Below are positions 1-60,872 of a stretch of DNA of 62,071 nt, one piece after another. Source of the stretch: Nitrospinaceae bacterium. GTDB lineage: Bacteria; Nitrospinota; Nitrospinia; Nitrospinales; VA-1. A program made the translations under genes and the position numbers. The stretch covers positions 1,867,774 to 1,929,844 of the forward strand of contig CP070799.1 of assembly GCA_020343535.1 (NCBI GenBank), written 5' to 3'. Each line of letters starts with the position of its first letter. Within the stretch, counting starts at the first letter, position 1. Below the pieces are notes generated by a model, which searched no databases, was not told the origin of the DNA, and was given only the letters and a program-made list of their open reading frames with translations.

Positions 1-501
1 TTTCTGGCAGTTGCGGGTGACGAGAATATTAATAAAAATCTTTTAAAGGGTCATAAGGTAGGAGATAAAATTTTCAATGTCCATCTTGACGGTTATAACT
101 TCCTGCCTCATTTAATGGGTCAGGAAGAGAAGGGAAGACGAGATGAAGTATTTTATTTTTCTGATGATGGGGATTTAACGGCCCTTCGATATAAGGACTG
201 GAAACTTATTTTCATGGAGCAGCGAGTGGAGGCTACTTTGCAGGCTTGGGCAGAGCCATTTGTTCCCTTGCGGGTGCCATTAATTTTCAACCTGCGGCGT
301 GACCCTTATGAGCGAGCTCAGCTGACCTCAAACACATATTATGATTGGTTGCTCGATCACGCTTTTCTCCTGGTGCCCGCGCAAGCCGTTGTTGGGAAGT
401 TTTTAAGCACATTCCGAGAGTATCCACCACGGCAAAAGGCCGCTAGTTTTTCCCTTGATCAGGTTATGGAGAAGCTATTATCGTCGGGTGGATCTAAGTA
501 A
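1..501 (+). CDS. arylsulfatase (type I sulfatase), C-terminal portion; 5' end outside the window
   Basis: Frame 1 is open from base 1 with no start codon in the window. The translation GDKIFNVHLDGYNFLPHLMGQ...DWKLIFMEQR...IFNLRRDPYERA...FREYPPRQKAASF resembles the conserved C-terminal region of AtsA-type arylsulfatases. The ORF track lists only the Met-initiated part 115..501. Confidence 0.8.
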   Translation, partial: FLAVAGDENINKNLLKGHKVGDKIFNVHLDGYNFLPHLMGQEEKGRRDEVFYFSDDGDLTALRYKDWKLIFMEQRVEATLQAWAEPFVPLRVPLIFNLRRDPYERAQLTSNTYYDWLLDHAFLLVPAQAVVGKFLSTFREYPPRQKAASFSLDQVMEKLLSSGGSK

Positions 502-536
502 GTTTTCTGAGCATTATGCTCAAGCCAGTATTCCTT

Positions 537-600
537 TTATTATGAGTCTGGCATCTTTTAGATGCCAGACTCATAATAATTTTTCTGCTTTTTTGTTTTT
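537..600 (+). terminator. rho-independent terminator after the sulfatase gene
   Basis: Perfect 20-bp inverted repeat ttattatgagtctggcatct (537-556) / agatgccagactcataataa (560-579) with a 3-nt loop, followed by the T-rich tract tttttctgcttttttgtttttt. Confidence 0.75.
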
Positions 601-634
601 TGACGAGGCTTAGTGGGTAAAATTAATCTTCCAG

Positions 635-2989: not shown

Positions 2990-4089
2990 TGTTTGTGCGA
3001 CGAAGGAAATATTTTGCAAGCTATGAATTTCAGAATATTCCTGTGAAATTATCTGGGCATAAGGGGAAAAAGACCACAATAAATAAATGTTTAATTATGA
3101 CTGGACTTAAAAAAAAACTTCTTATAATAGTTTTCTCTTTGATCTGTTTTGTTTTATGGTTTTGGTGCATTCTGGCCATCCGATTTTCGGGTATGCCCGA
3201 AACTCTTGCATTTATCGCTTGCACCATTTTTGGTGCAAGTGTTCCGTTGGCTTTTATATTTATACCTAACCGTAAGCGTACAGCTTATATTGTGATTGGT
3301 CTTTATATTTTAATATTTATTGGCTGGTCACAAATTGAACCGTCTCATCATCGTGAATGGGTTCCAAGCGTTGCTAAACTGCCCTACGCCAAAATAGAAG
3401 GTGATCAAGCCAAAATTTATAATATTCGAAATTTTGATTACAGGACCGAAAATGATTTCTCGATTCGTTATTATGACAGGATTTATGATCTAAATGATCT
3501 TGAGTCAGTGGACTATATACTTTCGTATTGGGATGGGCTGGAGGCAGTAGCTCATACAATATTCAGCTTTGGATTTGGCGATAACGAATACATAGCTGTC
3601 TCTGTCGAAACGCGCTTAGAAAAAGGGGAACCTCAATCAGCTCTGAGAGGACTTTTTAAACAGTATGAACAGATCTATGTGCTGGGTGATGAAAGAGACC
3701 TGATCCGCCTGAGAACAAATTTTCGGAAAGAGGACGTGTATCTCTACCCAACTTTGGTAAAAAAAGATGACATTCGGAAACTATTTGAGGTCATTCTTGA
3801 TCGGGTAAATAAAATTGCTGGGAAACCAGCATTTTATAACACACTTTCTCAAAATTGTTTGAGCAGTTTGGTTGCTGACTTTAAAAAAGTGATTACGCCC
3901 AGATCGTTATTTGATTTCAGGCGGATTGCAAACGGTTATTCTGATGAAATGCTTTTTGAAAATGGCTGGATTGATTCTAGGTTAAGTTTTGAGGAGACCA
4001 AGAGGTTTCACTATATTAATCAATATGTTAAAAGTGACACTGTTGGAGATAGTTATTCCATAAAAATTAGACCATTTATTGCAAGGTAA
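2989..4089 (+). CDS. DUF4105 (Lnb-like) family membrane protein
   Basis: The start ATG overlaps the upstream TAA (TAATG); an alternative start is ATG 3097 (MTGLKKK). Three N-terminal hydrophobic helices are followed by YILSYWDG...AHTIFSFGF...YIAVSVETR...YEQIYVLGDERDLIRLRTNFR, which I recognise as DUF4105-like. Confidence 0.65.
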   Translation: MFVRRRKYFASYEFQNIPVKLSGHKGKKTTINKCLIMTGLKKKLLIIVFSLICFVLWFWCILAIRFSGMPETLAFIACTIFGASVPLAFIFIPNRKRTAYIVIGLYILIFIGWSQIEPSHHREWVPSVAKLPYAKIEGDQAKIYNIRNFDYRTENDFSIRYYDRIYDLNDLESVDYILSYWDGLEAVAHTIFSFGFGDNEYIAVSVETRLEKGEPQSALRGLFKQYEQIYVLGDERDLIRLRTNFRKEDVYLYPTLVKKDDIRKLFEVILDRVNKIAGKPAFYNTLSQNCLSSLVADFKKVITPRSLFDFRRIANGYSDEMLFENGWIDSRLSFEETKRFHYINQYVKSDTVGDSYSIKIRPFIAR

Positions 4090-4177
4090 ACTTTATTGTC
4101 ATAAGTTTAGTCCCAATAAATGGTGCGTGTTATTGTGAGATCTAAAGGCAATGGTGGTCGTAGAAATTTAAATTATG

Positions 4178-4429
4178 CTAACGCCTAGAAGCAGCTATAG
4201 CCAAGGGTATCGAAACGCTTCCTCGGCCTAGCTTTGGGTGTGATACTGAGATGCTTTCAATATTTGCAAAAGGAATAGCGGTTACGCCTTTTTCCAATTG
4301 AAATACTAGAGCCGGCAAGCTTAAAAGTTCCTTAAGGCGATTGGTAATCATCATAGGGTCAAATTTTGGATCGAAGACAAATGATTCCTCGTTTCCGTTT
4401 ATAAACTTTATTCTCAGTGTGCCAATCAT
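4178..4429 (-). CDS. hypothetical small protein (83 aa)
   Basis: ATG is preceded by a strong SD (taAGGAGcgttaaaaATG on the minus strand). No recognisable domain. Convergent with the DUF4105 gene and divergent from the hydrolase gene. Confidence 0.5.
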   Translation of the reverse strand: MIGTLRIKFINGNEESFVFDPKFDPMMITNRLKELLSLPALVFQLEKGVTAIPFANIESISVSHPKLGRGSVSIPLAIAASRR

Positions 4430-4629
4430 TTTTAACGCTCCTTATGTGGAAGAGAGTCATTCAGGAAAAAAATATTGTTCAATGGACAAAAATATAAAAA
4501 AGGTAGAAAAATTACTATTTGCCCTAAATTTATATTTAATTTAGTCAATTTATCAATCATAGTCCATTGAGAAATATTTGGGATTGTAAAAAATATTTGG
4601 GCTCCAAGGTCGTTTTTGAGGAGAGTAAA

Positions 4630-5898
4630 ATGTTTATTAAATTTAATTATGTTTACCTATTGATTATCTTAGCATTGCAGCTGGGAGGTTGCGCAAGTTT
4701 CGGCAAGGGGGTCGTAGAGGGTCTTCTGAGTGAATCTGAAAAAAAGGATATGCGAGTTTGTGAGATATGGAGTAAAGGATTTAAGGGTATAGACGCAAGT
4801 ATTGATAATGCGGAAGGGAAAGCAAAAGTTCTAATGGTACATGGTGTCGGCCATCATATACCTGGATATTCTACCATTCTTATGGAGAATTTAATGAGGG
4901 AGCTAGAGCTACCAGTCATGGCTATGCCTTACAAGGAATTGACTCTTTCGGACCCCTTAGCCCCATCTAAAGAATTAGGTAATTTACGTTTAACTCAATT
5001 GCTAAGTAAGGATCAAAAAAGAGAGTTGCTCTTTTATGAACTGACTTGGTCCAGTATTAGCGAGATTGAGAAGGAAGTCCTGGCCTATGACAGCTCTGGG
5101 CAACACTCTTTTCGCCGTGCAAAAGTAAATGATGCGTTGAAGAAATTCTCAAATGACGCAATTTCTGATCCAATGATCTATTTGGGTGCAAAACAAGAGG
5201 ATATTCAGAAATCTGTTGGGCAAAGTTTTTGCTGGATGATCGCACATGGATGGGATGATTTTCCCTCTGGAATTGATAGGCCCTGTGACGTAAGTTCGCC
5301 AGGAATGTTTGAAAACGCAGAAATTGATGACTTTATATTTATTTCGCATAGCCTTGGGAGCAGAATTACTATTGATGCCTTGCAAAGGTTAGCTAGATTA
5401 ATAAATGATAAAAACTTTCAGAGCGAATATCCACAACTAGAAAGACTCCATCATGCAATTCAAGATAGAGAAGTAACAATTTTTATGCTTTCCAACCAGC
5501 TACCTCTGTTGCAACTGGGGCGCTCGCTACCGGAAGTATTGAACCAACAGGAGAAATATTGTGTTCCAAGTGGTAGTAATTATGCTGATCGATTTGCAAA
5601 TCAAACACATATTGTTGCATTTAGTGACCCCAATGACATGCTTAGTTATACCATTCCTGTGGGGTTCAAGGACAAATATCTGGATTCTAGGATGTGCACT
5701 GTAGTCAGCAATATCAGCATCAATGTGGCACACGTGGTGGACGTCCTGGGTTTTAGTGAGGTGGCTAATCCTATGGAGGCTCATGTGGGATATGATCATG
5801 ATGAACGTGTTGTAGAGTTACTCGCTCACGGTCTTAGTGATAATAATATTTCCCCAGTGATTAAGGAACGTTGCCAGTGGGTAGAAATAATCCAATAA
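4630..5898 (+). CDS. alpha/beta-hydrolase-like (lipase/esterase-type) lipoprotein
   Basis: The track ORF starts at TTG 4567. The likelier start is ATG 4630, after GAGGAG. Lipobox LQLGGC; HG motif (MVHGVGHH); nucleophile elbow GxSxG-type FISHSLGSR; later SDPND and a conserved His region. Confidence 0.65.
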   Translation: MFIKFNYVYLLIILALQLGGCASFGKGVVEGLLSESEKKDMRVCEIWSKGFKGIDASIDNAEGKAKVLMVHGVGHHIPGYSTILMENLMRELELPVMAMPYKELTLSDPLAPSKELGNLRLTQLLSKDQKRELLFYELTWSSISEIEKEVLAYDSSGQHSFRRAKVNDALKKFSNDAISDPMIYLGAKQEDIQKSVGQSFCWMIAHGWDDFPSGIDRPCDVSSPGMFENAEIDDFIFISHSLGSRITIDALQRLARLINDKNFQSEYPQLERLHHAIQDREVTIFMLSNQLPLLQLGRSLPEVLNQQEKYCVPSGSNYADRFANQTHIVAFSDPNDMLSYTIPVGFKDKYLDSRMCTVVSNISINVAHVVDVLGFSEVANPMEAHVGYDHDERVVELLAHGLSDNNISPVIKERCQWVEIIQ

Positions 5899-5955
5899 AT
5901 TGTATGATCGATAATTTTATTTTTAATGATGAGAATTTATAAATTGAGAAAAAAA

Positions 5956-7266
5956 ATGCGCAAACTTCTAATAGTATTTGTGTCATCTCTATCTATTCTC
6001 CTGTTCTTAGGATTGTATGGGTGCTCATCAACATCTTCCCAGAGAGGGGATAACATTGTTTCCGGATATGCAAACTCTCTACGGCCCATATCAAGTGATT
6101 TGGATGGGGCTCAATTTGAAATTCCACCTGTTCTCAAGGCGAGTGATTATTTACCTCCAGATTTAAAAAGAGGCAGACAATATTTTGTAAATGAGGACAT
6201 TTACACAGATGGCTTTACTAACCGCTATCGGTTGAGTTCAGATTTTTTTGTTATGGATGTTCAAGGCGACGATATGCTTAGAGCCCACATTCAGGAGGTG
6301 CGGGCTTTAGATGCTTTGGCGAAAATGAAAAAAACCAGTGCTTTCGCCGATGCAGTTAAAAATACGGCCAAATCGCCATTTTACATGGCTAAGGACTTAA
6401 TCACCCACCCTGTGGATACCGTAACAGGGGTCCCTAAGGGGATTTGGCGTTTCATGGGTAGAGCTGGTGAAATGGTAACGGGGGAGCGAGGTGAGATAGA
6501 AGATACTGCGGCTCAGGAACTTATTGGTTTTTCAGCAGCTAAGCGGAAATTAGCTCATCAATTGGGAGTGGATGTTTATTCGACCAATATAACTTTGCAA
6601 AAAGAGCTTAACAGTGTCTCTTGGGCTTCCTTTAGCGGGGGTTTTGTTACTGGTCTAGCAATGACACCCATCCAGGCTTTGAAGCTTACTAAAGTCGCCC
6701 ACCGTATGAATAAGATTCTTTTAGATAATGCTCCGGAAGATTTACGAAAAATGAATAGGGCGAGTTTGCGGGGAATGGGGGTTGAGGAAAAATGGATAGA
6801 AAGATTTTTAAGGCATGCTCATATATCTCCTCGTCACGAGACTATTATTGTAGAATCGCTTAAAGGATTAAAGGGAGCTAAAAGTCGAAACAAGTTTATT
6901 GCTGTCGCTACAACAGCTGAATCTTTTGAGGAAGCGTTTTTCTTCCAAAGAGTAGCTGAGATGTTACTGGAATATCATTTAAAAATAGCTTCCATTAAGG
7001 AAATCGTAGTTGTCAATCGATTGCTGATGGGACTTACTGAGGAGAAGAATTTATTTCTTCCTCTTTTGTGGGATTATGGAGTTTGGTCCAAACCAGCTGC
7101 ATTAAAGGCAAAGGAAATTATGCAATCCGCATCTCAGAGGTTCCAAATAAAAAATATTGAATTGTGGACTTCAGGGACTCTTTCGGCAAAGGCTAGGCAG
7201 AAGTTCGAGGAAATGGGGTTTAAGGTTACCGAGAAAGCTTTTAGTCGATTGAAGGATCATTTGTAA
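5956..7266 (+). CDS. hypothetical lipoprotein (about 437 aa)
   Basis: Long ORF with AT-rich codon usage. Signal plus lipobox MRKLLIVFVSSLSILLFLGLYGC when started at ATG 5956 (longest ORF starts at 5926). No recognisable domain. Confidence 0.6.
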   Translation: MRKLLIVFVSSLSILLFLGLYGCSSTSSQRGDNIVSGYANSLRPISSDLDGAQFEIPPVLKASDYLPPDLKRGRQYFVNEDIYTDGFTNRYRLSSDFFVMDVQGDDMLRAHIQEVRALDALAKMKKTSAFADAVKNTAKSPFYMAKDLITHPVDTVTGVPKGIWRFMGRAGEMVTGERGEIEDTAAQELIGFSAAKRKLAHQLGVDVYSTNITLQKELNSVSWASFSGGFVTGLAMTPIQALKLTKVAHRMNKILLDNAPEDLRKMNRASLRGMGVEEKWIERFLRHAHISPRHETIIVESLKGLKGAKSRNKFIAVATTAESFEEAFFFQRVAEMLLEYHLKIASIKEIVVVNRLLMGLTEEKNLFLPLLWDYGVWSKPAALKAKEIMQSASQRFQIKNIELWTSGTLSAKARQKFEEMGFKVTEKAFSRLKDHL

Positions 7267-7287
7267 ACTGGTTTGAGGTTTGTTTTA

Positions 7288-7884
7288 ATGCATAACTCAT
7301 TATTAGAAAAGCAGATAGGGATGTTTCTTTGTGGGATATTTCTGCTAGCTTGTTCGACCCAAAGGCAAAACTTCAATGATGAATTACATTCCGACCTTTC
7401 AAATACTGCAGTGGTTTCAGTTTCATATTCGGATAAAAAGCTACCCTCATCGGCAATATTCCATTGGGCACCAGGTTTGACCCAATTTAATAAAGATCCC
7501 CGTTTTCGTAGAGCACCTATTGAAATAATGTTTCGAAATGCCATTCGAGAAAATTTGACAGAACGGGGATATGTTTTTGGTTCTTCACCTAATAAAAGCG
7601 ATTTTTTAGTGGGTTATTTTATTGGTCTTAACAGCTCATTTCATGATTCAGACGTTGAAGCTAAGTACCAATTGGATCCCGGCCTCCAGACGCGGGTGAC
7701 TGATTCAAATAAATTTGAAAAGGGAACCGTGGTTATTGATTTATTCGACCTAGGTACTAAGCGTTTTATTTGGCGGGGTGCCATGGAGGGGGTTGCAAAA
7801 TTTGAGATACCACATAACGTTAGGCAAAAGCGAATTAATTATGCTGTGGATCTAATGCTTCAAAATTATTTTAACGGTGAATAA
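7288..7884 (+). CDS. DUF4136-like lipoprotein
   Basis: Lipobox FLLACS. The C-terminal segment VVIDLFDLGTKRFIWRGAMEG resembles the DUF4136 signature. The track ORF starts at TTG 7273; ATG 7288 or 7321 is more likely. Confidence 0.55.
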   Translation: MHNSLLEKQIGMFLCGIFLLACSTQRQNFNDELHSDLSNTAVVSVSYSDKKLPSSAIFHWAPGLTQFNKDPRFRRAPIEIMFRNAIRENLTERGYVFGSSPNKSDFLVGYFIGLNSSFHDSDVEAKYQLDPGLQTRVTDSNKFEKGTVVIDLFDLGTKRFIWRGAMEGVAKFEIPHNVRQKRINYAVDLMLQNYFNGE

Positions 7885-8251
7885 TGTTATCCCAGTTGTT
7901 TTCCCTCAAAGACATATCGTCTGATCTTCCATCCCGATACTGATCCAAACTTCAAAGAGAAAGTCAATTCCAGCTGAATTGATTACCAATCTCACCGTTG
8001 TGTCCCAGTCCGATAAGGCATCCTCCAACATAGGATTTCTCATTTGCGACACAGGCGTTTATATGCGTTAAATTCTGCCTATCGTTTGATCAAACTTCAG
8101 GCTGGAACCTCCATTGTTTCCTTTAAGGATAACGACAGCTTCCATTTTTGCATCTATGGCCTATTTCCTTTCTATGTCCTCACCATATTCAGGATTCATG
8201 TCAGATAGTAAATAGACTAATCCATAATAGAGCGTAGAATAATTACTGGCT

Positions 8252-8920
8252 TTAAGATTTAATTATTCCAATTATTTGACCAACTAACGGATCGGGATCT
8301 TTATCCAAGTCGAATTTTTCGATGGGATCTCCCAACCTGAGAGGGCTTAATATTAATAAATTCTTAACCTTATGGCATTGCCTGGCATCTAAATATTGTT
8401 GAGTGATGATTGCATACATATTCTGATCACTCACCTCTCTTTCTCCGCACGCGACGATTATTTTGTCTCCATTCCTAACAACGGGAGAAGAGGTAGTGCC
8501 GTTAACCGTAAGTGCCTTGAACGGGCCGCGAAATTTTGACCAAATTTCTTCCCTAATAAAACAGAAAGGGCCTAAGGGAGATGAATTCGGAGGGGCGCCT
8601 GCCACTAAACCCGGGCGTACACTCCAGAAATTAACTTGCTTCATATTTCCTGCATGATGACTATCATCACCTTCCCCCCCAAGATGTGATTGGGGCTCTC
8701 CTTTTCCCGTAAGAACCCAATCAAAATTGATGGATTCTTGGTTGCAAAAAACTTTTAATCTATCCTCTGGGATTTTGTTCAATCTCTTTCTAGCGGCAAG
8801 GGCTTTAGGTCTAAATCTCAATAAATCAGCAACTTCATAGTCATATCGTAAGGATTTTACCTGTTTTATTCGGTTGACGATGGATGTAAAGTCTATATTT
8901 TTAGTGATTTTTATTGACAT
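8252..8920 (-). CDS. phage CI-type repressor-like protein (N-terminal HTH, C-terminal S24/LexA-like domain)
   Basis: The N-terminus VADLLRF...NKIPEDRLKVFCNQESINFDWVLTGKG resembles the CI repressor HTH domain. The C-terminus VNGTTSSPVVRNGDKIIV...KVKNLLILSP resembles the S24 fold but lacks the canonical GDSM. Confidence 0.65.
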   Translation of the reverse strand: MSIKITKNIDFTSIVNRIKQVKSLRYDYEVADLLRFRPKALAARKRLNKIPEDRLKVFCNQESINFDWVLTGKGEPQSHLGGEGDDSHHAGNMKQVNFWSVRPGLVAGAPPNSSPLGPFCFIREEIWSKFRGPFKALTVNGTTSSPVVRNGDKIIVACGEREVSDQNMYAIITQQYLDARQCHKVKNLLILSPLRLGDPIEKFDLDKDPDPLVGQIIGIIKS

Positions 8921-9137
8921 AGGCTAAATAAATAGGTAATTTGAAATCATATAGGCTATAAATTTGGATTATAGCGCTAATTGTTAGGCATGTAAACGGG
9001 ATAATTTTTTGACGGGTTTTTCAGCGGATAGATTGATTTGGGGTTTATGAGCTCAAAATTAACATATGAAAACGAAAGAATTTCTTGTGAGTTTACGCAG
9101 GATCGGACTTATAAATTTTCATTAAGGAATATTTTCA

Positions 9138-9533
9138 ATGTTTAAGGGTTTGGGAGCTAAAGCATATTACTCTCTTCGGGCAAAAGGGATATCCAAAGAG
9201 AAAATTCTTGAATTGTTGGGAACTGATAAAGAGGTTGATGAAGTTGATAGAGGAATTGTCAATGCCTATGAAATTTTTACTCAGATAGAAATTTCTAATA
9301 TAAAAAAGAGGCAGGCTAGGAAAAATTATGTTTCAGATTGCATAGCTTCCCTACAAAAAGATATTGATGATTGTGATCATATCCATGGTCGGTTTTTTAA
9401 TGAAATTGAAAAAAGGAAGATTGAGAATTTGTCCTTAGCTGAATTAATCAAGTATGAAGGTGAGCTTTTAAAAATGAAGGATAGAAAAATGGATGCTCTT
9501 TTAAAATACAAAAATCTACATATTGAGGTGTGA
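9138..9533 (+). CDS. hypothetical protein (131 aa, coiled-coil-like)
   Basis: ORF divergent from the CI-like repressor, with AAGGAA upstream of the ATG. No recognisable domain. Confidence 0.45.
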   Translation: MFKGLGAKAYYSLRAKGISKEKILELLGTDKEVDEVDRGIVNAYEIFTQIEISNIKKRQARKNYVSDCIASLQKDIDDCDHIHGRFFNEIEKRKIENLSLAELIKYEGELLKMKDRKMDALLKYKNLHIEV

Positions 9534-9534
9534 A

Positions 9535-9861
9535 ATGTACGATGACAGCACTAAGGAGAAATTCATCTTTTGCCGATCGCAAGGCATGAGTTATGCGAAT
9601 ATTGCAAAAAAGATTAAGGTGGCCAAGTCCACCCTCATTAAATGGAACAAAGATTTTGAAGAGGAGATATTAAAACGGCGAAATGAACACTTAAATGATT
9701 TGCGGGATGAATATCTTGTGTCAGAAATCAAGCGGGTTGAGTTATTCGGTGAGAGATTAAAAAGCGTCAGGGCAGAGATTGAAAAGAAGGGATTGGGTGA
9801 ACTTAAGATAGGGCAGCTATTGGCGTTGGAGGGGAAATATGTAAAATTCCTGGAAGAGTAA
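9535..9861 (+). CDS. small HTH protein (excisionase / small-terminase-like N-terminal HTH)
   Basis: ATG 9535 follows GAGGTG and starts 1 nt after the upstream stop. The HTH-like segment is GMSYANIAKKIKVAKSTLIKWNKDF, followed by a charged coiled-coil tail. Confidence 0.5.
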   Translation: MYDDSTKEKFIFCRSQGMSYANIAKKIKVAKSTLIKWNKDFEEEILKRRNEHLNDLRDEYLVSEIKRVELFGERLKSVRAEIEKKGLGELKIGQLLALEGKYVKFLEE

Positions 9862-9962
9862 TTTTTTACTATTAGGTACTGAAAAAAATTATCTCACTTC
9901 TAGGAGACTGACTAAAAGTGAACCAAAATTGACCGATTATTACTTTTGAGGTAGGTTCATGT

Positions 9963-10334
9963 TTAATTCTTTTTTTTTAGTGGTTTTGGAGGGGCCGCGA
10001 GGTCTAAAAGAACCTGGATCGCGGAAATCTTTTTAGGGTCTCCTTCTCGGTAGAGGCGTTCTATTTGGGAAATCAGTTTTTCCAGTTTTTTGTCTCCCCT
10101 CTTTTGATCTTTCGAGGATTTTCCCGTTAAAAGCCAATTAAGGTTTTTATTCCCCAATTCAGAAATCCTGATCAGAATAGCTATCTCCGGCTCCCGTTGA
10201 TTTTTTTCATATTTACTGATCACTGTAGATCCACCCAGGCCCAGCTTTTTGGCAAAGACCGCTTGATTTAGTCCCATTTCCCTCCGGATCGATTTAATAC
10301 GCTCGCCCAAAAACCCCGAATTGCCAATTTTCAC
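9963..10334 (-). CDS. XRE-family HTH transcriptional regulator
   Basis: GERIKSIRREMGLNQAVFAKKLGLGGSTVISKYEKNQREPEIAILIRISEL is a typical Cro/C1 HTH. GTG start at 10334. Confidence 0.75.
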   Translation of the reverse strand: MKIGNSGFLGERIKSIRREMGLNQAVFAKKLGLGGSTVISKYEKNQREPEIAILIRISELGNKNLNWLLTGKSSKDQKRGDKKLEKLISQIERLYREGDPKKISAIQVLLDLAAPPKPLKKKN

Positions 10335-10363
10335 TTGACTAAAATCCCCAATTTGTCATAATT
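10335..10363 (+). promoter_or_regulatory. candidate sigma70-type promoter for the integrase gene
   Basis: TTGACT (10335-10340), a 17-nt spacer, then ATAATT (10358-10363). It directly abuts the XRE gene start on the other strand. Confidence 0.4.
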
Positions 10364-10567
10364 GAGAGGTGGTAAAAATATCTAGAGGGATTCTCCGCCT
10401 CAATTCTGGGTAAGAATCCTACCATAAAATGATCCCGCGTAGAGGCAGAAATTCATCCAGTTCTCCCTGGGCGCGATGAAGTAGATTACCTTCCCAAAAT
10501 CGTAATGGTACACTCCATTGCATTAAGGAGCCGGCATGGCCGGGCTTTCTATAAGGAGGAAGCCGCT

Positions 10568-11566
10568 ATGCCAGAGCACATGCGCCGCCGAGGCAAATCG
10601 GGTATTTTTTATGCTGATTTTTGGTTGGATGGTGTCCATTACCAAGACTGCCTCGGAACCAGCGATCGCCGATGGGCGGAGCGAACATTGGCTTTATTAA
10701 AAGATAAAATTGAAGGAGGTGAATACTACAAGCACAGAACGATATTTCGAGATTTGGTTCCAAAATATTTGGAAAAGCTTTCCACGCGGTCCTTACACCT
10801 CAAGGTTAGAAATACCACAATTCTTGAAATACATCTTACTCCTTTTTTCGGAGATATGAGGTTGGCTGAGATTAATATATCTTCTGTTGTCCAATACAAA
10901 ATGGAACGGGAAAAGGATAGGGCCACCGAAAGTACCTTGAAAAAGGAATTGAGAGTTCTTAGGGAGGTCATATTGCTAGTAGATTCTAAGTGGAAAAACC
11001 CGACATTAGCCGACTCGGATTTGATGAAGTTTATTTATAAGGGAAAGAAGGCGGAAAACTTTCTTGAGGAGTCAGACGTTTATCTAATCATTGGGTGTAT
11101 GCCTGAGAAGTACAAGGCGCTTTGTTTGATTGCGGCCTACTCAGGCCTTCGTCTGAAAAACGTGGTCGAATTAAAATGGGAAAATGTCGATCTAGCGAAT
11201 GGTTGGATCAGGGTTAACCAGAGTAAGACGGGGAATTTGGTAAAAGTTCCGATTTGCGGAAAGCTGAAAGATATTTTTGGATCCATAAAGGTTAGACCAC
11301 TTGCTGGAAATGCAAGAGTATTTCCTGGCTCAAAAACCAAACCTGTAACCACGGCATTTAAACGTGCGAGTAAAAAGGCAGGGTTGGAATGGGCTTCCTT
11401 TCACTCGCTCAGACATTTTTGTGGATCATTCTTAGCTAATAGCGGAATACGGCAAGAATTGATTGCTCAGGTGTTGGGGCACAAAGATTTGAGAAGCACT
11501 CGGGTCTACACCCACTTCAGGCCTGAGACGGTAAAGGAAGTTGTGTCAGTTTTTGACCAGGAATAA
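10568..11566 (+). CDS. tyrosine recombinase / phage-type integrase
   Basis: The C-terminal catalytic region HSLRHFCGSFLANSG...LGHKDLRSTRVYTH carries the R..HxxR..Y signature. ATG 10568 is preceded by TAAGGAGGA (track ORF starts at 10505). Confidence 0.9.
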   Translation: MPEHMRRRGKSGIFYADFWLDGVHYQDCLGTSDRRWAERTLALLKDKIEGGEYYKHRTIFRDLVPKYLEKLSTRSLHLKVRNTTILEIHLTPFFGDMRLAEINISSVVQYKMEREKDRATESTLKKELRVLREVILLVDSKWKNPTLADSDLMKFIYKGKKAENFLEESDVYLIIGCMPEKYKALCLIAAYSGLRLKNVVELKWENVDLANGWIRVNQSKTGNLVKVPICGKLKDIFGSIKVRPLAGNARVFPGSKTKPVTTAFKRASKKAGLEWASFHSLRHFCGSFLANSGIRQELIAQVLGHKDLRSTRVYTHFRPETVKEVVSVFDQE

Positions 11567-11634: not shown

Positions 11635-11709
11635 TGGTAGCCCCAAGGGGAATCGAACCCCTGTTTCCGGCGTGAGAGGCCGGCGTCCTAACCCCTAGAC
11701 GATGGGGCC
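11635..11709 (-). tRNA. tRNA-Glu (anticodon CUC)
   Basis: The reverse complement GGCCCCATCGTCTAGGGGTTAGGACGCCGGCCTCTCACGCCGGAAACAGGGGTTCGATTCCCCTTGGGGCTACCA folds as a cloverleaf. Anticodon stem CCGGC/GCCGG with loop CTCTCAC; T-arm AGGGG-TTCGATT-CCCCT; encoded CCA. Confidence 0.9.
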
Positions 11710-12243: not shown

Positions 12244-12317
12244 TGGCTCGGGCACAAGGATTCGAACCTCGACTTTCAGGGCCAGAACCTGACGTCCTAC
12301 CATTAGACGATGCCCGA
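12244..12317 (-). tRNA. tRNA-Gln (anticodon CUG)
   Basis: The reverse complement is TCGGGCATCGTCTAATGGTAGGACGTCAGGTTCTGGCCCTGAAAGTCGAGGTTCGAATCCTTGTGCCCGAGCCA. It has the U1-A72 acceptor pair typical of tRNA-Gln, anticodon stem TCAGG/CCTGA with loop TTCTGGC, a TTCGAAT T-loop and an encoded CCA. Confidence 0.9.
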
Positions 12318-15058: not shown

Positions 15059-17260
15059 TCAGGCGGCATTCAGCAGGCTATCGCGGATTTGCGCGAGCAG
15101 CGCCACATTGTGGCGGTGGCCGGTGCGGTGCGCCTTAATGTGGCCGCGCAGGGGTTTTCCCAGCAGATAAAAATCCCCGAGGATGTCCAGAATCTTGTGG
15201 CGGGAGAACTCGTTTTCGAAGCGCAGCTTGGTGTTAAGAACCTTTTTGTCGCCCAGCAGGATGAAATTGTCGAGCTTGCCGCCGGTGGCGAAACCCATTT
15301 TGGTGAGCTGCGCCACGTCTTCCAGAAAGCCGAACGTCCTGGCTGGGGCGATTTCTTCCTTGAAGCTTTTTTCTCCGTTGAATTCGTAGGTATATTCCTC
15401 GATCCCGATGGGTTCCGGGTACTCCATGTGATAGGTGACGCGGAATTTGTCGGAAGGCTCGATGGTGATGTGAGGCTGGTTTTTCTCGGGCGACCCGTAC
15501 AGGTAAGTCCGGTCGATGACGATTTCCTCGCACATGCCATCCTGTTCTTCGAACTCGCCGTCCTCGATCAAGTCGCAAAAATCGCGCGCCGACCCATCCA
15601 TCACCGGCGCTTCGTCGCCGATTTTGATGAGCAGGTTGGTGATGCGGTACATGTGCAGGACTGCCATAATGTGTTCAATGGTGGCCACCGAGGCGCTGCC
15701 CTTTTTCAGGCAGGTAGAGTAATCCGTGGATTCCACGTTGTCGAGCCGGGCCGGGATCGTCTGGCCGCTGGAAATGTCGCCGAAAATGATGCCGCTGTTC
15801 GGCGGCAGGGGGCGGAGAATGAGGCCCGTCTTAATGCCCGAGTGCAGGCCGCTGCCGCATAGCACGACGCTGCGCTTGAGGGTTCTTTGCAACCTGAACG
15901 GCCGTGCGGACGCGGCATCATCCGCGCCCGACGCGTCGATTCCGTGCAGGTGGAGTTTTTCCCGGAAGACTTCCTTGGGGGTCCGAAGCGATTGGGCGGT
16001 GCGCTCCAGGTTCCATTGGTTCTTCCTCAAATGGTGGATGAGAAATCCCTTTTCCCAGTTGAGCTCCGCTTCCTTGAGGGATTCGAAGCCCTCGAACGGG
16101 TTCGATGTGCTTTCAATGGCGGAGTTTCTGAATTCTTGCGGGAGGTCTCCCAGGGCGATCCGCCCCTTGGACGCGGTTTGCATCAGCAGGCGGTCGAGCA
16201 CCGAGCGCAGTTCCTTGAGATTGCCGGGCCAGTGAGGGTTCGTCAGGGCGGTCATCCCATCCCCATCCAGCTCCGGCACTGACACTTCGTTTCTCAGCCC
16301 GTATTTCGTGAAATAATCCTCCACCAAGAGCGGAATTTTGTCGGCGTGGTCGCGCAGGGGGGGGATTACCCGCGGGGCGCTGAATCGTTCCAGGAGCTCG
16401 GGGAGAAAGAAGCCGCTTTCGGTCAGAGCGGAAAGATCGTTGTAGGACGAAGCGATCAGCCGGGCGGGCAAAAGATCCGCGTTCTCCTCATTCTCGGCCG
16501 CATTTTTCAACGCCTTTGCCAGATCCCGCTGAATATCTGTGCTCAGGGCTTCGACGTGGGTGAGGTACACCACTTCCGCGCCCTTTTCGGGGGAGATGAA
16601 CCGCCCGCCCGCCTTGGGCAAGCTCTCGTCCGTTCCGGGAAAAAGATGGAACCGGATTTCCTCCGGCTTGCGCAGGGCGCAATTGAGCTTGATGAAGCTG
16701 CAGTCGGCAAGCGGGCTTAGGCGGTGGATGATGTGGGCAACAAATTCCTTGCCAGTGCCTTTTTCTCCGATCAGCATGACCGGTTCCTTCTTGCCGGCGG
16801 TTTGATGGATGAACGTCCGGATATCGCCGATCAGTTCGAAGCAGAGGGGCAGCTTGCGTTCTTCCACGCCCTCGCAATGATTCAGCCGCGCTTTTTTCTG
16901 GCGGAACACGCTGCTCACCGATTGGGTGACCTTGTCGAGGGAAAACGGTTTTTCGATGAAATCGTACGCCCCGAGTTTGGTGGCCTGCACGGCGGTGTCG
17001 ATGGTGCCGTGCCCCGACATAATGAGCACCTCCACTTCGGGCTGGTACATTTTCACCGACTTGAGCACTTCGATGCCGTCCATGCCCGGCAGCCAGATGT
17101 CGAGCAGGACGACATCCGGAGGGTCCGACTGAATCATTTCGAGGGCGTTGATGCCGTCTTCGGCAACGGCGACTTCGTAGCCCTCGTCGGAAAGGATTTC
17201 TTTCAGGGAACTGACAATATTTTTTTCGTCATCGACGATGAGGACGCGTTCTTGCGACAA
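15059..17260 (-). CDS. lpxC: fusion protein: response-regulator receiver + degenerate sigma54-activator-type AAA+ domain + Fis-type HTH + UDP-3-O-acyl-GlcNAc deacetylase (LpxC)
   Basis: Receiver: VLIVDDEKN, LLDIWLPGMDG, MSGHG, FIEKPF. AAA-like: GEKGTGKE and WPGNLKEL, with no GAFTGA and no hhhhDE Walker B. HTH: NLERTAQSLRTPKEVFREKL. LpxC: LQRTLKRSVVLCGSGLHSG, ATIEHIMAVL, FSRHKILDILGDFYLLG, AHRTGHRHN. Confidence 0.85.
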   Translation of the reverse strand: MSQERVLIVDDEKNIVSSLKEILSDEGYEVAVAEDGINALEMIQSDPPDVVLLDIWLPGMDGIEVLKSVKMYQPEVEVLIMSGHGTIDTAVQATKLGAYDFIEKPFSLDKVTQSVSSVFRQKKARLNHCEGVEERKLPLCFELIGDIRTFIHQTAGKKEPVMLIGEKGTGKEFVAHIIHRLSPLADCSFIKLNCALRKPEEIRFHLFPGTDESLPKAGGRFISPEKGAEVVYLTHVEALSTDIQRDLAKALKNAAENEENADLLPARLIASSYNDLSALTESGFFLPELLERFSAPRVIPPLRDHADKIPLLVEDYFTKYGLRNEVSVPELDGDGMTALTNPHWPGNLKELRSVLDRLLMQTASKGRIALGDLPQEFRNSAIESTSNPFEGFESLKEAELNWEKGFLIHHLRKNQWNLERTAQSLRTPKEVFREKLHLHGIDASGADDAASARPFRLQRTLKRSVVLCGSGLHSGIKTGLILRPLPPNSGIIFGDISSGQTIPARLDNVESTDYSTCLKKGSASVATIEHIMAVLHMYRITNLLIKIGDEAPVMDGSARDFCDLIEDGEFEEQDGMCEEIVIDRTYLYGSPEKNQPHITIEPSDKFRVTYHMEYPEPIGIEEYTYEFNGEKSFKEEIAPARTFGFLEDVAQLTKMGFATGGKLDNFILLGDKKVLNTKLRFENEFSRHKILDILGDFYLLGKPLRGHIKAHRTGHRHNVALLAQIRDSLLNAA

Positions 17261-17317
17261 GAGAATTCTCCTGTTCTGGACCAGTTGGAAAAGAAGACGG
17301 TTCCTAAATATCTTCCC

Positions 17318-17950
17318 TTATTCCCGGGTAAAATCCAAATAATATATACGTTCTCCGGCCTTGATGAAGTTGTTCTCGTACTTGGTCATCGGCAAATCGT
17401 CGCGTTCTTCCCGAAAGGCGCACGGTCCGCAATTGTTGCGAAAGGCCAGGTCCGCCTCGAGGTAATCGAGCATTTCGCGGGCGTAGGGCTCGCTGTCGGT
17501 GGCCAGCCGCAACAGGCCGCCCCCCTTCAGCTTTTCGGCGAGGACCTTGAGAAACGCCGGTTTGATCAAGCGCCGCTTGATATGGCGCTTTTTCGGCCAG
17601 GGGTCCGGAAAGTTGATATAAACCCCCGCCAGTTCCCCCGGGTTGAAGATGAAGGGAACCTTCTCGCGCGCATCGCCGTATACGATGCGTACGTTCGCCA
17701 TTTGCAGCTTTTCGATCCGCGAGACTATCTTCCGGATGCCGCGATGATAAAAGTCCAGGCCGATAAAATTGCACCCCGGCTCGCGAGCGGCCATTTCGAT
17801 GAGAAACTTGCCGTTGCCGAAGCCGATTTCCAGCATCAGCGGATGGTCGTTGTCGAACAGCGCGGGCCAATCCGGCCGCTCTTCGGGGGCGAGAAAAAAC
17901 GGGCTTTCTTCGGCGATCTCGTCGAAGGAAAGAAGCGGTTTGGATGACAT
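17318..17950 (-). CDS. trmB: tRNA (guanine46-N7)-methyltransferase TrmB
   Basis: LEIGFGNGKFLIEMA, NFIGLDF and INFPDPWPKKRHIKRRL are typical TrmB motifs. Confidence 0.85.
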   Translation of the reverse strand: MSSKPLLSFDEIAEESPFFLAPEERPDWPALFDNDHPLMLEIGFGNGKFLIEMAAREPGCNFIGLDFYHRGIRKIVSRIEKLQMANVRIVYGDAREKVPFIFNPGELAGVYINFPDPWPKKRHIKRRLIKPAFLKVLAEKLKGGGLLRLATDSEPYAREMLDYLEADLAFRNNCGPCAFREERDDLPMTKYENNFIKAGERIYYLDFTRE

Positions 17951-17955
17951 GGATT

Positions 17956-18441
17956 TTACCGCCCCAGATTTTCGAGATTGTCGTGAATCGTGATCACCTC
18001 AAGCACTTCGTATTCCACCCGCTCCTCAGCCAGAGGCACCTTCACCTCATCCCCCTCCTGCTTGCCCATTAAGGCGCGGCCGATGGGCGAGGCGGTGGAG
18101 ATGCGGCCCTCCTCGGGGTTCACCTCCTCGGGAAACACGAGATGGTAGGTCTTCTTGTCTCCGGTGTTCAAATCCAGCAGGCGCACGGTGCTGCCGAGGC
18201 CGGAACGGTCCTTGGGAAGGCGGTCGATATTGAGGGCGGTGATGTCGCTGATCCTCTTTTGCAGCTGCGACAGCCGCGTTTCCAGGAACATCTGGCGCTC
18301 CTTCGCCGCCTTGAACTCAGCGTTTTCGCTCAGGTCCCCATGGGCGATGGCGATCTTGAGCGCCTCGGGGATGTCCACCTTCAGTTCCTTCTTGGTTTTT
18401 TCAAGCTCTTCCTCGAGCTTGTTAATGATGGGCAGTCTCAT
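17956..18441 (-). CDS. greA: transcription elongation factor GreA
   Basis: 161 aa. N-terminal coiled coil with AIAHGDLSENAEFKAAKERQ and a C-terminal GreA/GreB domain ISTASPIGRALMGKQEGDEV. Confidence 0.9.
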   Translation of the reverse strand: MRLPIINKLEEELEKTKKELKVDIPEALKIAIAHGDLSENAEFKAAKERQMFLETRLSQLQKRISDITALNIDRLPKDRSGLGSTVRLLDLNTGDKKTYHLVFPEEVNPEEGRISTASPIGRALMGKQEGDEVKVPLAEERVEYEVLEVITIHDNLENLGR

Positions 18442-18462
18442 GGTTTATTCTCTCCGATGAAA

Positions 18463-19233
18463 TCAGAAATTCGAGGCGGCGGGTTGTTTCGGCCTTTTCC
18501 GCGCCGCGGGGTCGATCACGATGAAGGCGCCGTCGTAACCCAGGCGGCGTGCCCTTTCTTTAAGCGCATTGGCGGTGGCATAATCCTCGCTGCTACCCCA
18601 AAGGACGCGGTAGAACCCGGCGTCTTTAGCCTCGTAGGGCACCATCCGGCTGTTTTCGAGGCGGCTGATGATGCGCTCGGCGTTTTTCCTGTCTTGAAAC
18701 ACTCCAAGTTGGACCGTGTAGGAAGCGCCGGCTTCGAGGGCGCCGCCGCTGCCCGGCCTCTGGGTTACCACCAGGCGCACCGGCGCGATGCCGCTTTTTA
18801 TCATACCGAGTTCCTTCGCCGCCTGATAACTGAGATCGATGATGCGATTGCCCGCGAAGGGGCCCCGGTCATTGATCCGCACCTCGGTTTCGCGCTGATT
18901 GTCGAGGTTGACGACCCGCACCCGGGTGTTGAACGGCAGTGTTTTGTGAGCGGCGGTGGTGGCATGCATGTCATACACTTCGCCGTTCGAGGTGAGCTTT
19001 CCGTGAAAGCCCGGCCCGTACCAGGAGGCGACGCCTTCCTCGCTGAACCCGTTGGAATCCGTGATGGGGTAATACACCCTGTCGCCGACCTGGTAGGGAA
19101 TGGCCCCCCGCTCGGCTCTCGAAGGCACCTTCATCTCCGGCGGCGTCGTGGCACAACCCGTCATGCCGCCGACAAGGCCCGCGGCCAAAAGGGCGGCGCA
19201 CACGCTTCGCAATTGATGAATGGTAACCGGCAT
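18463..19233 (-). CDS. rlpA: septal ring lytic transglycosylase RlpA family lipoprotein with C-terminal SPOR domain
   Basis: Lipobox GGMTGC. DPBB domain [23 protein letters not shown]...[19 protein letters not shown]...[13 protein letters not shown]-like C-terminus [17 protein letters not shown]. Confidence 0.85.
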
Positions 19234-19557
19234 GAAATCCCCAGGCGCATGCGCCGGAAGGGTGGGGGTGATCGTCGGCCATCGCCCGCGCCCCGGGCGT
19301 CAACCGTTCGCACCGGAGACGGTGGCCCAAGAGCCGTCTCCAGAGCAACCTTCATTCTATTGGGCCGGGGTCGGCCCGGTCAACTTAAAATTCACTAGCC
19401 TTTTAGGGTTAGATGGGTTTGCCCGGGGCCAGGGCGGACTCGGCTGAAGTCTCTTAACCTATTGACTTACAATGAGATGGAGGGTTACTATGACAAAGTG
19501 GGATCTTCACGCGACGACCCCGGTGCATCGGCGAAATGCAAATCGGATGAGGGTAGG

Positions 19558-59287: not shown

Positions 59288-59338
59288 TTCCGGTGCAGGA
59301 TCCCATTATTTTCCCCAGTAGCTGAGTGAGGACCCTTC

Positions 59339-60799: not shown

Positions 60800-60839
60800 A
60801 AACCGTCTTCGCGGTTCATCCCATCCTGAAGTGAAAACA

Positions 60840-60863
60840 GGCCGCCCCCTTCGGGGGGCGGCC
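60840..60863 (+). terminator. intercistronic GC hairpin between the two HtrA genes (attenuator or processing site rather than a full terminator)
   Basis: 10-bp stem ggccgccccc / gggggcggcc with a ttcg loop. Only two T residues follow, and the next ATG is 10 nt downstream. Confidence 0.4.
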
Positions 60864-60872
60864 TTCGTGCCT

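Follow-up and report, generated by a model that had tools for sequence, protein, structure and literature searches.

LpxC fused to a response-regulator receiver and a degenerate NtrC-type module in Nitrospinaceae, with relatives in several phyla

LpxC, a major antibiotic target, catalyzes the step that commits precursors to lipid A and controls the rate of its synthesis. Control of LpxC is understood in only a few proteobacteria, in terms of FtsH/LapB proteolysis, Lon, and activation by MurA. A 2025 review of lipid A regulation, which presents other taxa as open questions, does not mention a fusion of the kind described below (PMC12444477). Here we analyze a gene from a Nitrospinaceae bacterium located within a 62,071-nucleotide stretch of contig CP070799.1 (assembly GCA_020343535.1, positions 1,867,774 to 1,929,844 of the forward strand; the whole 62 kb stretch is denoted the window). 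The product of this gene is a single protein in which LpxC is preceded by a response-regulator receiver (REC), a degenerate AAA+ module and a helix-turn-helix (HTH) domain. We consider it probable that, in this protein and its relatives, LpxC is tethered to the receiver of an NtrY/NtrX-type pathway, that is, a dedicated activator has been fused to the enzyme and control has moved from transcription to the protein.

Among the closest described systems, the NtrY/NtrX pair (NtrYX) of alphaproteobacteria is functionally linked to lpxC expression: loss of NtrYX in R. sphaeroides increases lpxC mRNA 8.8-fold (PMC7240162), and lpxC transcript levels in Caulobacter are under NtrYX control (PMC12444477). 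In D. vulgaris, lpxC is the single target of the regulator DVU2934, and the operon of the DVU2934 orthologue adjoins lpxC in S. fumaroxidans (PMC3333781). A sigma54 promoter has been predicted at lpxC in Leptospira (PMC12655853).

Response regulators with enzymatic output include CheB (REC-methylesterase), PleD and WspR (REC-GGDEF), and RpfG (REC-HD-GYP). In CheB, the unphosphorylated receiver packs against the enzyme domain and inhibits it. Another natural LpxC fusion is the bifunctional LpxC/FabZ (NF009667, PRK13188), which appeared in our searches among the stand-alone group as C-terminally extended proteins of ~430-470 aa. The protein described here can be seen as a variant both of the response regulators with enzymatic output and of the ways in which LpxC is regulated. 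It shares with CheB, PleD, WspR and RpfG the succession of receiver, flexible linker and catalytic domain, but where those proteins have a signalling enzyme as output, it has a zinc amidase that acts in lipid A biosynthesis. In LpxC/FabZ, by contrast, the partner is C-terminal and, instead of being a signalling domain, is a neighbour in the pathway.

The fusion gene was first noticed in a reading of the DNA sequence alone (hereafter, the original prediction), which described an uninterrupted 733-codon open reading frame (ORF) encoding, in this order, a CheY-like receiver, a degenerate NtrC-type AAA+ domain, a Fis-type HTH and a complete LpxC. The ORF listing agrees with this description (Table 1): the frame is open throughout, begins with a TTG codon at the same position as in the aligned homologues and ends with a stop codon at 15059-15061. 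The receiver was matched by Response_reg over aa 6-115 (E = 3e-32, 111 bits), and its site is complete, with all the phospho-acceptor features originally listed present in the translation: D10, D11, D54, S82 (MSGHG) and K104 (FIEKPF).

At the other end of the protein, PF03331 was aligned to aa 458-725 over model positions 1-266 of 268 (E = 1e-80, 271 bits), and the lpxC equivalog TIGR00325 scored 227.7 bits, against a cut-off of 187.25, over profile positions 3-273 of 297. The best solved-structure match for aa 457-723 in a sequence search was P. aeruginosa LpxC (1e-49), and the zinc ligands and catalytic residues of that enzyme have their aligned counterparts in E529, H530, T642, F643, H688, K689, D692, D696 and H715. 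The claim of a complete LpxC that keeps these residues (IEH, HKILDILGD, TGH) is thus borne out by the profile coverage and the residue alignment, and the LpxC part appears to be catalytically competent. The predicted fold of this part also resembles solved LpxC structures, which include those of P. aeruginosa, E. coli and Aquifex aeolicus (Foldseek TMt 0.84-0.94, root-mean-square deviation (rmsd) 1.7-2.4 Å), the short Aquifex enzyme being the best LpxC match. Unlike these enzymes, the fusion protein carries a 456-residue N-terminal signalling extension and, unlike enterobacterial LpxC, it lacks the C-terminal tail region, given that TIGR00325 positions 274-297 are unmatched and the protein ends 8 residues past the LpxC core.

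The module between these two domains was matched weakly by Sigma54_activat (PF00158; aa 147-294, E = 2e-14, 54 bits, cut-off 20.2) and by AAA_lid_14 (aa 303-384, 4e-13). Walker A is intact, the GAFTGA motif is absent, its place being taken by a variable Lys-rich loop at ~aa 205-228, and the Asp-Glu of Walker B is replaced by TH (YLTHVE for hhhhDE). These features agree with the proposal that the domain is neither a sigma54 activator nor a normal ATPase. The evidence for the Fis-type HTH is mixed: aa 397-438 align with the C-terminal HTH of Brucella NtrX (5m7n), and the relatives P0126, P0139 and P0142 match Pfam HTH_8 (PF02954), but the window protein itself has no HTH_8 match at E <= 1.

Table 1. 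Coordinates of the fusion gene, its domains and the adjacent upstream features in the window
Feature	Position	Strand	Basis
Fusion gene, REC + degenerate AAA+ + HTH + LpxC, 733 aa	15059..17260	-	ORF listing, Pfam, homologues
Shine-Dalgarno AGGAG, 7 nt 5' of the TTG start	17268..17272	-	Sequence inspection
Receiver, aa 1-122; phospho-acceptor Asp54 at 17099-17101	16895..17260	-	Pfam Response_reg
Degenerate AAA+ core, aa 146-300	16361..16825	-	Pfam Sigma54_activat
Walker A GEKGTGKE, aa 165-172, kept	16745-16768	-	Translation
AAA+ lid, aa 301-385, with IPPLR and WPGNLKELRS motifs	16106..16360	-	Pfam AAA_lid_14
Divergent Fis-type HTH, aa 395-442	15935..16078	-	Alignment to Brucella NtrX HTH
Variable, disordered HTH-LpxC linker, aa 443-456	15893..15934	-	18% identity within Nitrospinota
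Complete LpxC, aa 457-733	15062..15892	-	Pfam PF03331, TIGR00325
LpxC key residues: E529/H530 15671-15676; T642/F643; H688-K689-D692-D696 15173-15199; H715 15116-15118		-	Alignment
Upstream co-directional genes: rlpA 18463-19233; greA 17956-18441; trmB 17318-17950	17318..19233	-	Pfam
Candidate promoter, sigma70-like match TTGACC-18-TAGAAT, 10/12, 5' of rlpA	19354..19383	-	Consensus scan, pattern match only

Over aa 1-440, the best match in sequence and structure is NtrX of Brucella abortus (PDB 5m7n, 5m7o and 5m7p), which likewise consists of a receiver, a GAFTGA-less AAA+ domain and an HTH. The structure 5m7n was the best solved-structure match for aa 6-438 in a sequence search (1e-52), and the NtrX equivalog NF051870 was the top N-terminal NCBIfam model. 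NtrX differs from the fusion protein in having no enzyme domain, and Brucella NtrX keeps the Walker B DE (LDEV) that nearly all fused long forms (see below) have lost. A description of the protein as simply NtrX plus LpxC was rejected: the NF051870 score of 243.7 bits is far below the 600-bit cut-off, and unfused, GAFTGA-bearing neighbours of lpxC also match the NtrX model best. An LpxC/FabZ identity was rejected as well (209.8 bits against a cut-off of 465, with the LpxC half alone matched and no FabZ part). Lacking the defining features of the bacterial enhancer-binding proteins (bEBPs) and of NtrX, the fusion protein is, by sequence criteria, a member of neither family.

In a search over 5.8 billion proteins, the full-length homologues (~715-750 aa, 56-99% identity) made up at least 120 clusters, which all share the Pfam architecture of the window protein. 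Where a source is named, it is Nitrospinota, Nitrospinaceae, Nitrospina or Nitromaritima. Contigs of 1.2-3.3 Mb account for several of these clusters, and UCD10953.1, encoded on a 2.53 Mb contig of a Nitrospinaceae metagenome-assembled genome (MAG), belongs to the cluster nearest the window protein. When the LpxC domain by itself was used as the query of an exhaustive HMMER scan, almost all of the nearest relatives proved to be N-terminally extended. These include long forms of ~680-736 aa, composed of REC, Sigma54_activat and LpxC, some also with HTH_8; short forms of 420-460 aa, composed of REC and LpxC only (10 of the 10 tested); and REC-HTH-LpxC intermediates (P0127, P0134). The names attached to the short forms point to Candidatus Binatia, and those attached to the long forms to Candidatus Tectomicrobia, Thermodesulfobacteriota and Nitrospinae. 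The fused architecture is conserved in Nitrospinota, has relatives across phyla and is not a peculiarity of one genome.

That the ORF is an artefact of assembly, a frameshift or a chimeric join between an ntrX-like gene and lpxC, a concern flagged for checking at the outset, is so improbable as to be negligible. Frameshifted copies or sequencing errors do exist in MAGs, as illustrated by two loci in which the fused gene is split over two frames (L022, 3005-5670; L036, 5983-7262) and which represent either sequencing errors or pseudogenes. However, the same uninterrupted architecture recurs in hundreds of independent assemblies (ENA, JGI, NCBI and Logan), the HTH-LpxC junction is in frame in all homologues, and base composition shows no break at the junction, so that an artefact is excluded for practical purposes.

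In a scan of species-representative genomes, the best 80 loci were classified into 44 short fused, 12 long fused and 2 frameshift-split fused genes, 9 unfused arrays and, for the rest, stand-alone lpxC. The MAGs with fused genes are labelled Nitrospinota, Desulfomonile, Syntrophaceae, Syntrophobacter, Syntrophorhabdus, Desulfocapsaceae, Binatia, Thermoanaerobaculia, Holophagae, Aminicenantes, Thermodesulfovibrionia and Myxococcota, and short forms are also present in MAGs labelled Acidobacteriota; these taxon names are MAG labels and are only as sound as the binning. One fused gene comes from an isolate, Desulfopila sp. IMCC35006. Three fused genes carry the labels Promethearchaeota archaeon (L015), Enterobacteriaceae (L039) and Patescibacteria (L048), which are implausible for a lipopolysaccharide (LPS) enzyme of the fused clade and probably reflect binning contamination.

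The two ends of the protein are its most conserved parts. Mean pairwise identity is 81% within Nitrospinota and 64% among all long forms for LpxC, and 79% and 61%, respectively, for the receiver, compared with 62% and 41% for the HTH, 52% and 34% for the AAA+ core, 48% and 39% for the AAA+ lid, and 18-35% and 12-26% for the linkers. D10, D11, D54 and K104 of the receiver and the nine aligned active-site residues of LpxC, which are also conserved in stand-alone LpxC, are invariant in all 127 aligned long and short forms; S82 is invariant in 35 of the 35 Nitrospinota-type forms. Thus, the phospho-site of the receiver and the LpxC active site are strictly kept, whereas the AAA+/HTH module between them is crippled or, in many lineages, absent. 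Among the 107 aligned long forms, none has GAFTGA, two have the Walker B Asp-Glu, and three have Arg at the Arg-finger position (the window protein itself has Arg there); an intact P-loop, G-x-x-G-x-G-K-E, is found in nearly all, and the Arg of PPLR in 100. With GAFTGA absent, the Walker B Asp-Glu replaced and the Arg finger mostly lost, the long-form AAA+ domain is predicted to be unable to contact sigma54 or to hydrolyse ATP normally. By analogy with Brucella NtrX, for which the PDB titles describe ATP and ADP crystal forms, this domain may still bind nucleotide.

This pattern bears on the choice, left open by the original prediction, between an LpxC gated by phosphorylation and an LpxC domain reused as a sensor. 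The latter would make the protein an NtrX-like DNA-binding regulator with LpxC as the ligand input, binding UDP-3-O-acyl-GlcNAc or its product, so that lipid A precursors feed back on transcription. The N-terminal 440 aa are indeed most like NtrX in both sequence (NF051870 at the top) and fold (5m7n and 5m7p at the top), and the HTH, at 62% identity within Nitrospinota, has W402, E403, K404, N414 and W416 invariant in the Nitrospinota-type alignment and matches HTH_8 in some relatives. However, many lineages have lost the AAA+/HTH module and all have retained LpxC; the catalytic and zinc residues, all invariant, would be unnecessary in a pure sensor domain; and the window protein fails to match HTH_8 and joins its HTH to LpxC through a variable, disordered linker. 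Because the transcription-factor parts are the dispensable ones, we consider a sensor role unlikely. Control of LpxC by the receiver is favoured, given that these two domains are always kept and are the most conserved, with the gating itself being a conjecture from this pattern.

In a neighbour-joining (NJ) tree of 172 LpxC domains with a bootstrap of 100, a single split (85/100) sets all of the 100 fused domains apart from every ordinary LpxC; on the fused side are also the two frameshifted domains and four short proteins. The fused LpxC domains thus appear to form one clade, and G479, K546 and C562 are clade-specific residues. The four short proteins within it (P0150, P0155, P0161 and P0166) are apparently stand-alone LpxCs, although their completeness is uncertain. 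The graded decay of the AAA+/HTH module and the existence of REC-HTH-LpxC intermediates favour repeated deletion, from long forms to short ones.

The commonest neighbour of the fused genes is a gene for an NtrY-like kinase, a parallel to the NtrX-NtrY pairing that is seen in many relatives and not in the window. In L002, L005, L007 and L010 (Binatia-type, Tectomicrobia-type and others), a kinase of 740-755 aa, with NtrY_N, HAMP, PAS, HisKA and HATPase_c domains, ends 23-55 bp before the fused gene. The count of such kinases was limited to fused loci in which 2.5 kb or more of upstream sequence is available; one lies directly upstream in 19 of these 52 loci, comprising 4 of the 13 long and 15 of the 39 short forms.

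The same partners occur as separate proteins in nine genomes (L063, L064, L066, L068, L070, L071, L072, L074 and L075), arranged as lpxC, NtrY-like kinase and REC-AAA-HTH regulator. The labels of these genomes are NC10, Desulfuromonadales, Acidobacteriota, Thermoanaerobaculia and 'Deltaproteobacteria', and the set includes an isolate, IMCC39146. In their composition of lpxC, a kinase and an NtrC-family receiver protein, both the arrays (L063-L075) and the D. vulgaris pair of DVU2934, by its published description, and the kinase DVU2931 resemble the fused loci. Unlike the fused forms, the array regulators keep GAFTGA, the Walker B DE and the Arg finger, as is typical of classical sigma54 activators, and 7 of the 9 arrays have a TGGCA-N-TTGCA (-24/-12) element 43-100 nt 5' of lpxC, where 0.02 per 400 nt are expected. 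By comparison, GAFTGA has been lost in all fused forms and the Walker B Glu and Arg finger in nearly all, and the -24/-12 element is rare, being found before 2 of the 59 fused genes and before none of the 28 kinase genes. The arrays are, in their own right, a conserved sigma54-dependent lpxC regulon that spans several phyla and is apparently documented for Desulfovibrio only.

Profiles of the receiver and the kinase built from the fused loci scored the partners in the unfused arrays almost like their own members; the scores of other NtrC-type pairs from these loci were far lower. From these comparisons, we infer that a kinase-activator pair dedicated to lpxC was fused to its target enzyme and that the sigma54 machinery then decayed.

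How the receiver might act on LpxC was addressed with structure models. A full-length AlphaFold2 (AF2) model, built from the 127-sequence alignment, has a mean predicted local distance difference test (pLDDT) score of 84.5 and a predicted template-modelling (pTM) score of 0.51, with four confidently predicted domains. The LpxC part (aa 457-733) is mostly at pLDDT 84-97 and the HTH is modelled as three helices at 79-93. The low-confidence parts are the linkers at aa 129-132, 381-393 and 445-452 (below 50 in the last of these) and the loop that replaces GAFTGA (~52). In a Foldseek search with the full-length model, Brucella NtrX came first, with a different arrangement of domains (rmsd ~20 Å), and a search for the REC-LpxC interface produced single-domain matches only. 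The model of a Binatia short form has a pLDDT of 85.7 and a pTM of 0.81, with residues 124-154, the 31-residue linker, disordered. Because LpxC accounts for 275 of the 431 residues in this protein, a freely placed receiver would, by TM arithmetic, cap pTM near 0.62, and the higher value therefore implies a confidently predicted, defined packing of REC on LpxC in the short form, a fixed arrangement like that of CheB.

An explanation that dispenses with catalytic gating is that the fusion couples the abundance or location of LpxC to the pathway through phospho-dependent proteolysis, oligomer formation, or mere co-expression at 1:1 stoichiometry, a 'Rosetta stone' without allostery. The LpxCs studied so far are indeed controlled mostly via stability (FtsH/LapB, Lon) or partners (MurA) (PMC12444477). 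Moreover, the fused LpxC has no C-terminal tail region and structurally most resembles the short enzyme of Aquifex; the linkers of the long forms are flexible, with a pTM of only 0.51; and the retained P-loop would fit nucleotide-dependent assembly. On the other hand, in the short forms LpxC is preceded only by a receiver and a disordered linker, and yet the phospho-site is invariant, and the short-form model predicts a defined REC-LpxC packing. This explanation overlaps with tethering of LpxC to the receiver, and stability control is compatible with both of these counter-points; taken without any gating, it is rather unlikely.

Under the tethering that we favour, a kinase, encoded next to the fused gene in many relatives and presumably elsewhere in the genome in Nitrospinota, would phosphorylate Asp54, and the phosphorylated receiver would change the output of LpxC by acting on the protein itself. 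This would most likely happen through relief of an inhibitory REC-LpxC packing, as in CheB, such that the kinase signal raises lipid A flux. This mode is favoured because the ancestral signal activated lpxC and the short-form model is packed. In the Nitrospinota long form, where the P-loop is invariant and the HTH is still conserved, the P-loop-only AAA+ domain and the HTH would probably add nucleotide-dependent oligomerisation, residual NtrX-like DNA binding, or both. A bolder version seems possible, and we put it forward tentatively: two-component phosphorylation would directly switch lipid A synthesis in several phyla, with an NtrY-type envelope/redox kinase acting through a receiver docked on LpxC, within seconds and without proteolysis or transcription. 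The activator would have been captured by its target's enzyme, shedding first GAFTGA, then the ATPase residues and then the AAA+/HTH module altogether.

Several observations weigh against this scheme. Neither a histidine kinase nor another receiver was found in the 62 kb window, and no kinase adjoins the fusion gene in the five Nitrospinota contexts for which the upstream sequence is long enough (the window, L001, L012, L013 and L021). Simple gating of LpxC by the receiver leaves the invariant P-loop and the 62%-identical HTH of Nitrospinota unexplained. The packing argument from pTM is indirect, being arithmetic rather than a measured interface, and that phosphorylation gates catalysis, as well as the sign of the effect, is deduced from comparisons of this kind. 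Finally, the NJ tree places the short forms at the base and the long forms nested among them, which leaves the order of long forms first and deletion afterwards unsettled.

It could also be that the fused gene is an accessory paralogue, specialised or conditional, and that a canonical stand-alone lpxC elsewhere in the genome performs the housekeeping function. The nesting of the short, apparently stand-alone P0150, P0155, P0161 and P0166 within the fused clade would fit such a division of labour. Nevertheless, no second lpxC was found in the 62 kb window or within ~6 kb of any fused locus, and the fused domain, one of the best-conserved regions of the protein, exceeds the equivalog cut-off of TIGR00325. 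Each genome with a fused gene is represented by one locus among the best 80, even though unrelated stand-alone LpxCs at 41-43% identity are among the matches listed; this argument is weak, as it extends to the listed matches only. A published LPS-core survey gives a single LpxC accession, of unconfirmed length, for N. gracilis. Taken together, these observations make an accessory role very unlikely.

In the window, the fusion gene is the last in a co-directional string with rlpA (DPBB_1 and SPOR), greA (GreA_GreB) and trmB (Methyltransf_4), the identities of which in the original prediction are upheld by these Pfam matches. The intergenic gaps are 21, 5 and 57 nt, and the four genes therefore probably form an operon. 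The sigma70-like match upstream of rlpA (Table 1) is a candidate promoter for it, and a pattern scan detected no sigma54 -24/-12 element anywhere in the 62 kb window. The trmB-fusion string, together with greA and, where the upstream sequence is long enough, rlpA, is present in four other Nitrospinota loci (L001, L012, L013 and L021); in a fifth, L011, only trmB precedes the fusion gene before the contig end. An exact look-up of the window protein in the assembly collection gave no match, and gene order was compared in these close relatives.

Downstream, lolA-rseP is found 3' of the fusion gene in four of the five other Nitrospinota loci. The same order, the fusion gene and then lolA-rseP, is seen in the relatives compared downstream (L001, L012, L013, L021, L007, L010, L016 and L017), and proS-rimP-nusA follow in L001, L007 and L010, where the sequence extends that far; lolA-rseP is thus common to Nitrospinota and to lineages that retain the upstream kinase. 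In the window, convergent suhB-mnmA-rsmD take the place of lolA-rseP, which indicates a rearrangement breakpoint directly after the fusion gene; LolA and RseP were looked for in the 62 kb window and were not found. In Binatia-type genomes, too, the ruvCAB-ntrY-REC-LpxC cluster has an rlpA homologue (DPBB_1 and SPOR) a few kb upstream of it (L002, 3474-4166; L005, 1-368; L030, 4-144), and the proximity of rlpA to the fusion in both Binatia-type and Nitrospinota genomes may represent a recurrent envelope-gene neighbourhood or a coincidence. Directly 3' of a long fused gene in a Thermodesulfobacteriota-labelled MAG (L008, 6750-9692) is a gene for a 980-aa PDZ-GAF-Sigma54_activat-HTH_8 protein, an unusual sensor-type sigma54 activator.

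The window has several other features. Over positions 1-11566, a block of ~11.5 kb, third-position GC is 0.27-0.50, compared with ~0.75-0.8 in the rest of the window. The block ends with a tyrosine integrase gene (10505-11566) that adjoins tRNA-Glu (11635-11709), and tRNA-Gln is at 12244-12317. The low third-position GC and the integrase beside tRNA-Glu suggest an integrated genomic island. The block encodes a multihaem cytochrome c/TPR/HEAT protein (635-2989), an Lnb_N protein, a DUF4136 protein, an XRE-type HTH protein, and two ORFs of ~445 aa without a Pfam match (4567-5898 and 5926-7266). Farther along, a 730-aa protein (49861-52053, minus strand) consists of an ATP-grasp domain of the D-Ala-D-Ala-ligase type and an M20 peptidase domain, an unusual pairing, and is immediately followed by a gamma-glutamyltranspeptidase (48236-49864, minus strand). 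The longest ORF at the far end (59306-61162, minus strand, 618 aa) has no Pfam match and is overlapped by two plus-strand ORFs (59330-60796 and 60795-62069) that weakly match the RseP profile in its PDZ-containing region; as these matches are on the plus strand and the minus-strand ORF has none, the real genes here are probably on the plus strand.

Fusion proteins of this kind are present in public databases under the names 'LpxC' or 'NtrX'. Full-text literature searches, the coverage of which left out most papers in subscription journals, returned no description of an LpxC-receiver or LpxC-NtrX fusion, or of LpxC as a response-regulator output. The original prediction had allowed that the fusion might prove to be a widely documented family; with no published description found, the receiver-LpxC proteins apparently constitute an undescribed, multi-phylum family.

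A receiver-LpxC fusion found in several phyla, often with the gene for an NtrY-like kinase just upstream, would amount to a new mode of control over lipid A synthesis, one that lends itself to direct tests. By the 'Rosetta stone' argument, the fusion would suggest that the NtrY/NtrX-type systems that affect lpxC in alphaproteobacteria and Desulfovibrio are primarily regulators of envelope biogenesis. The fused family would also be a rare, well-graded case of regulation shifting from transcription to the protein. Nitrospinota are the main marine nitrite oxidisers, and the regulation of their envelope thus matters beyond its mechanism.

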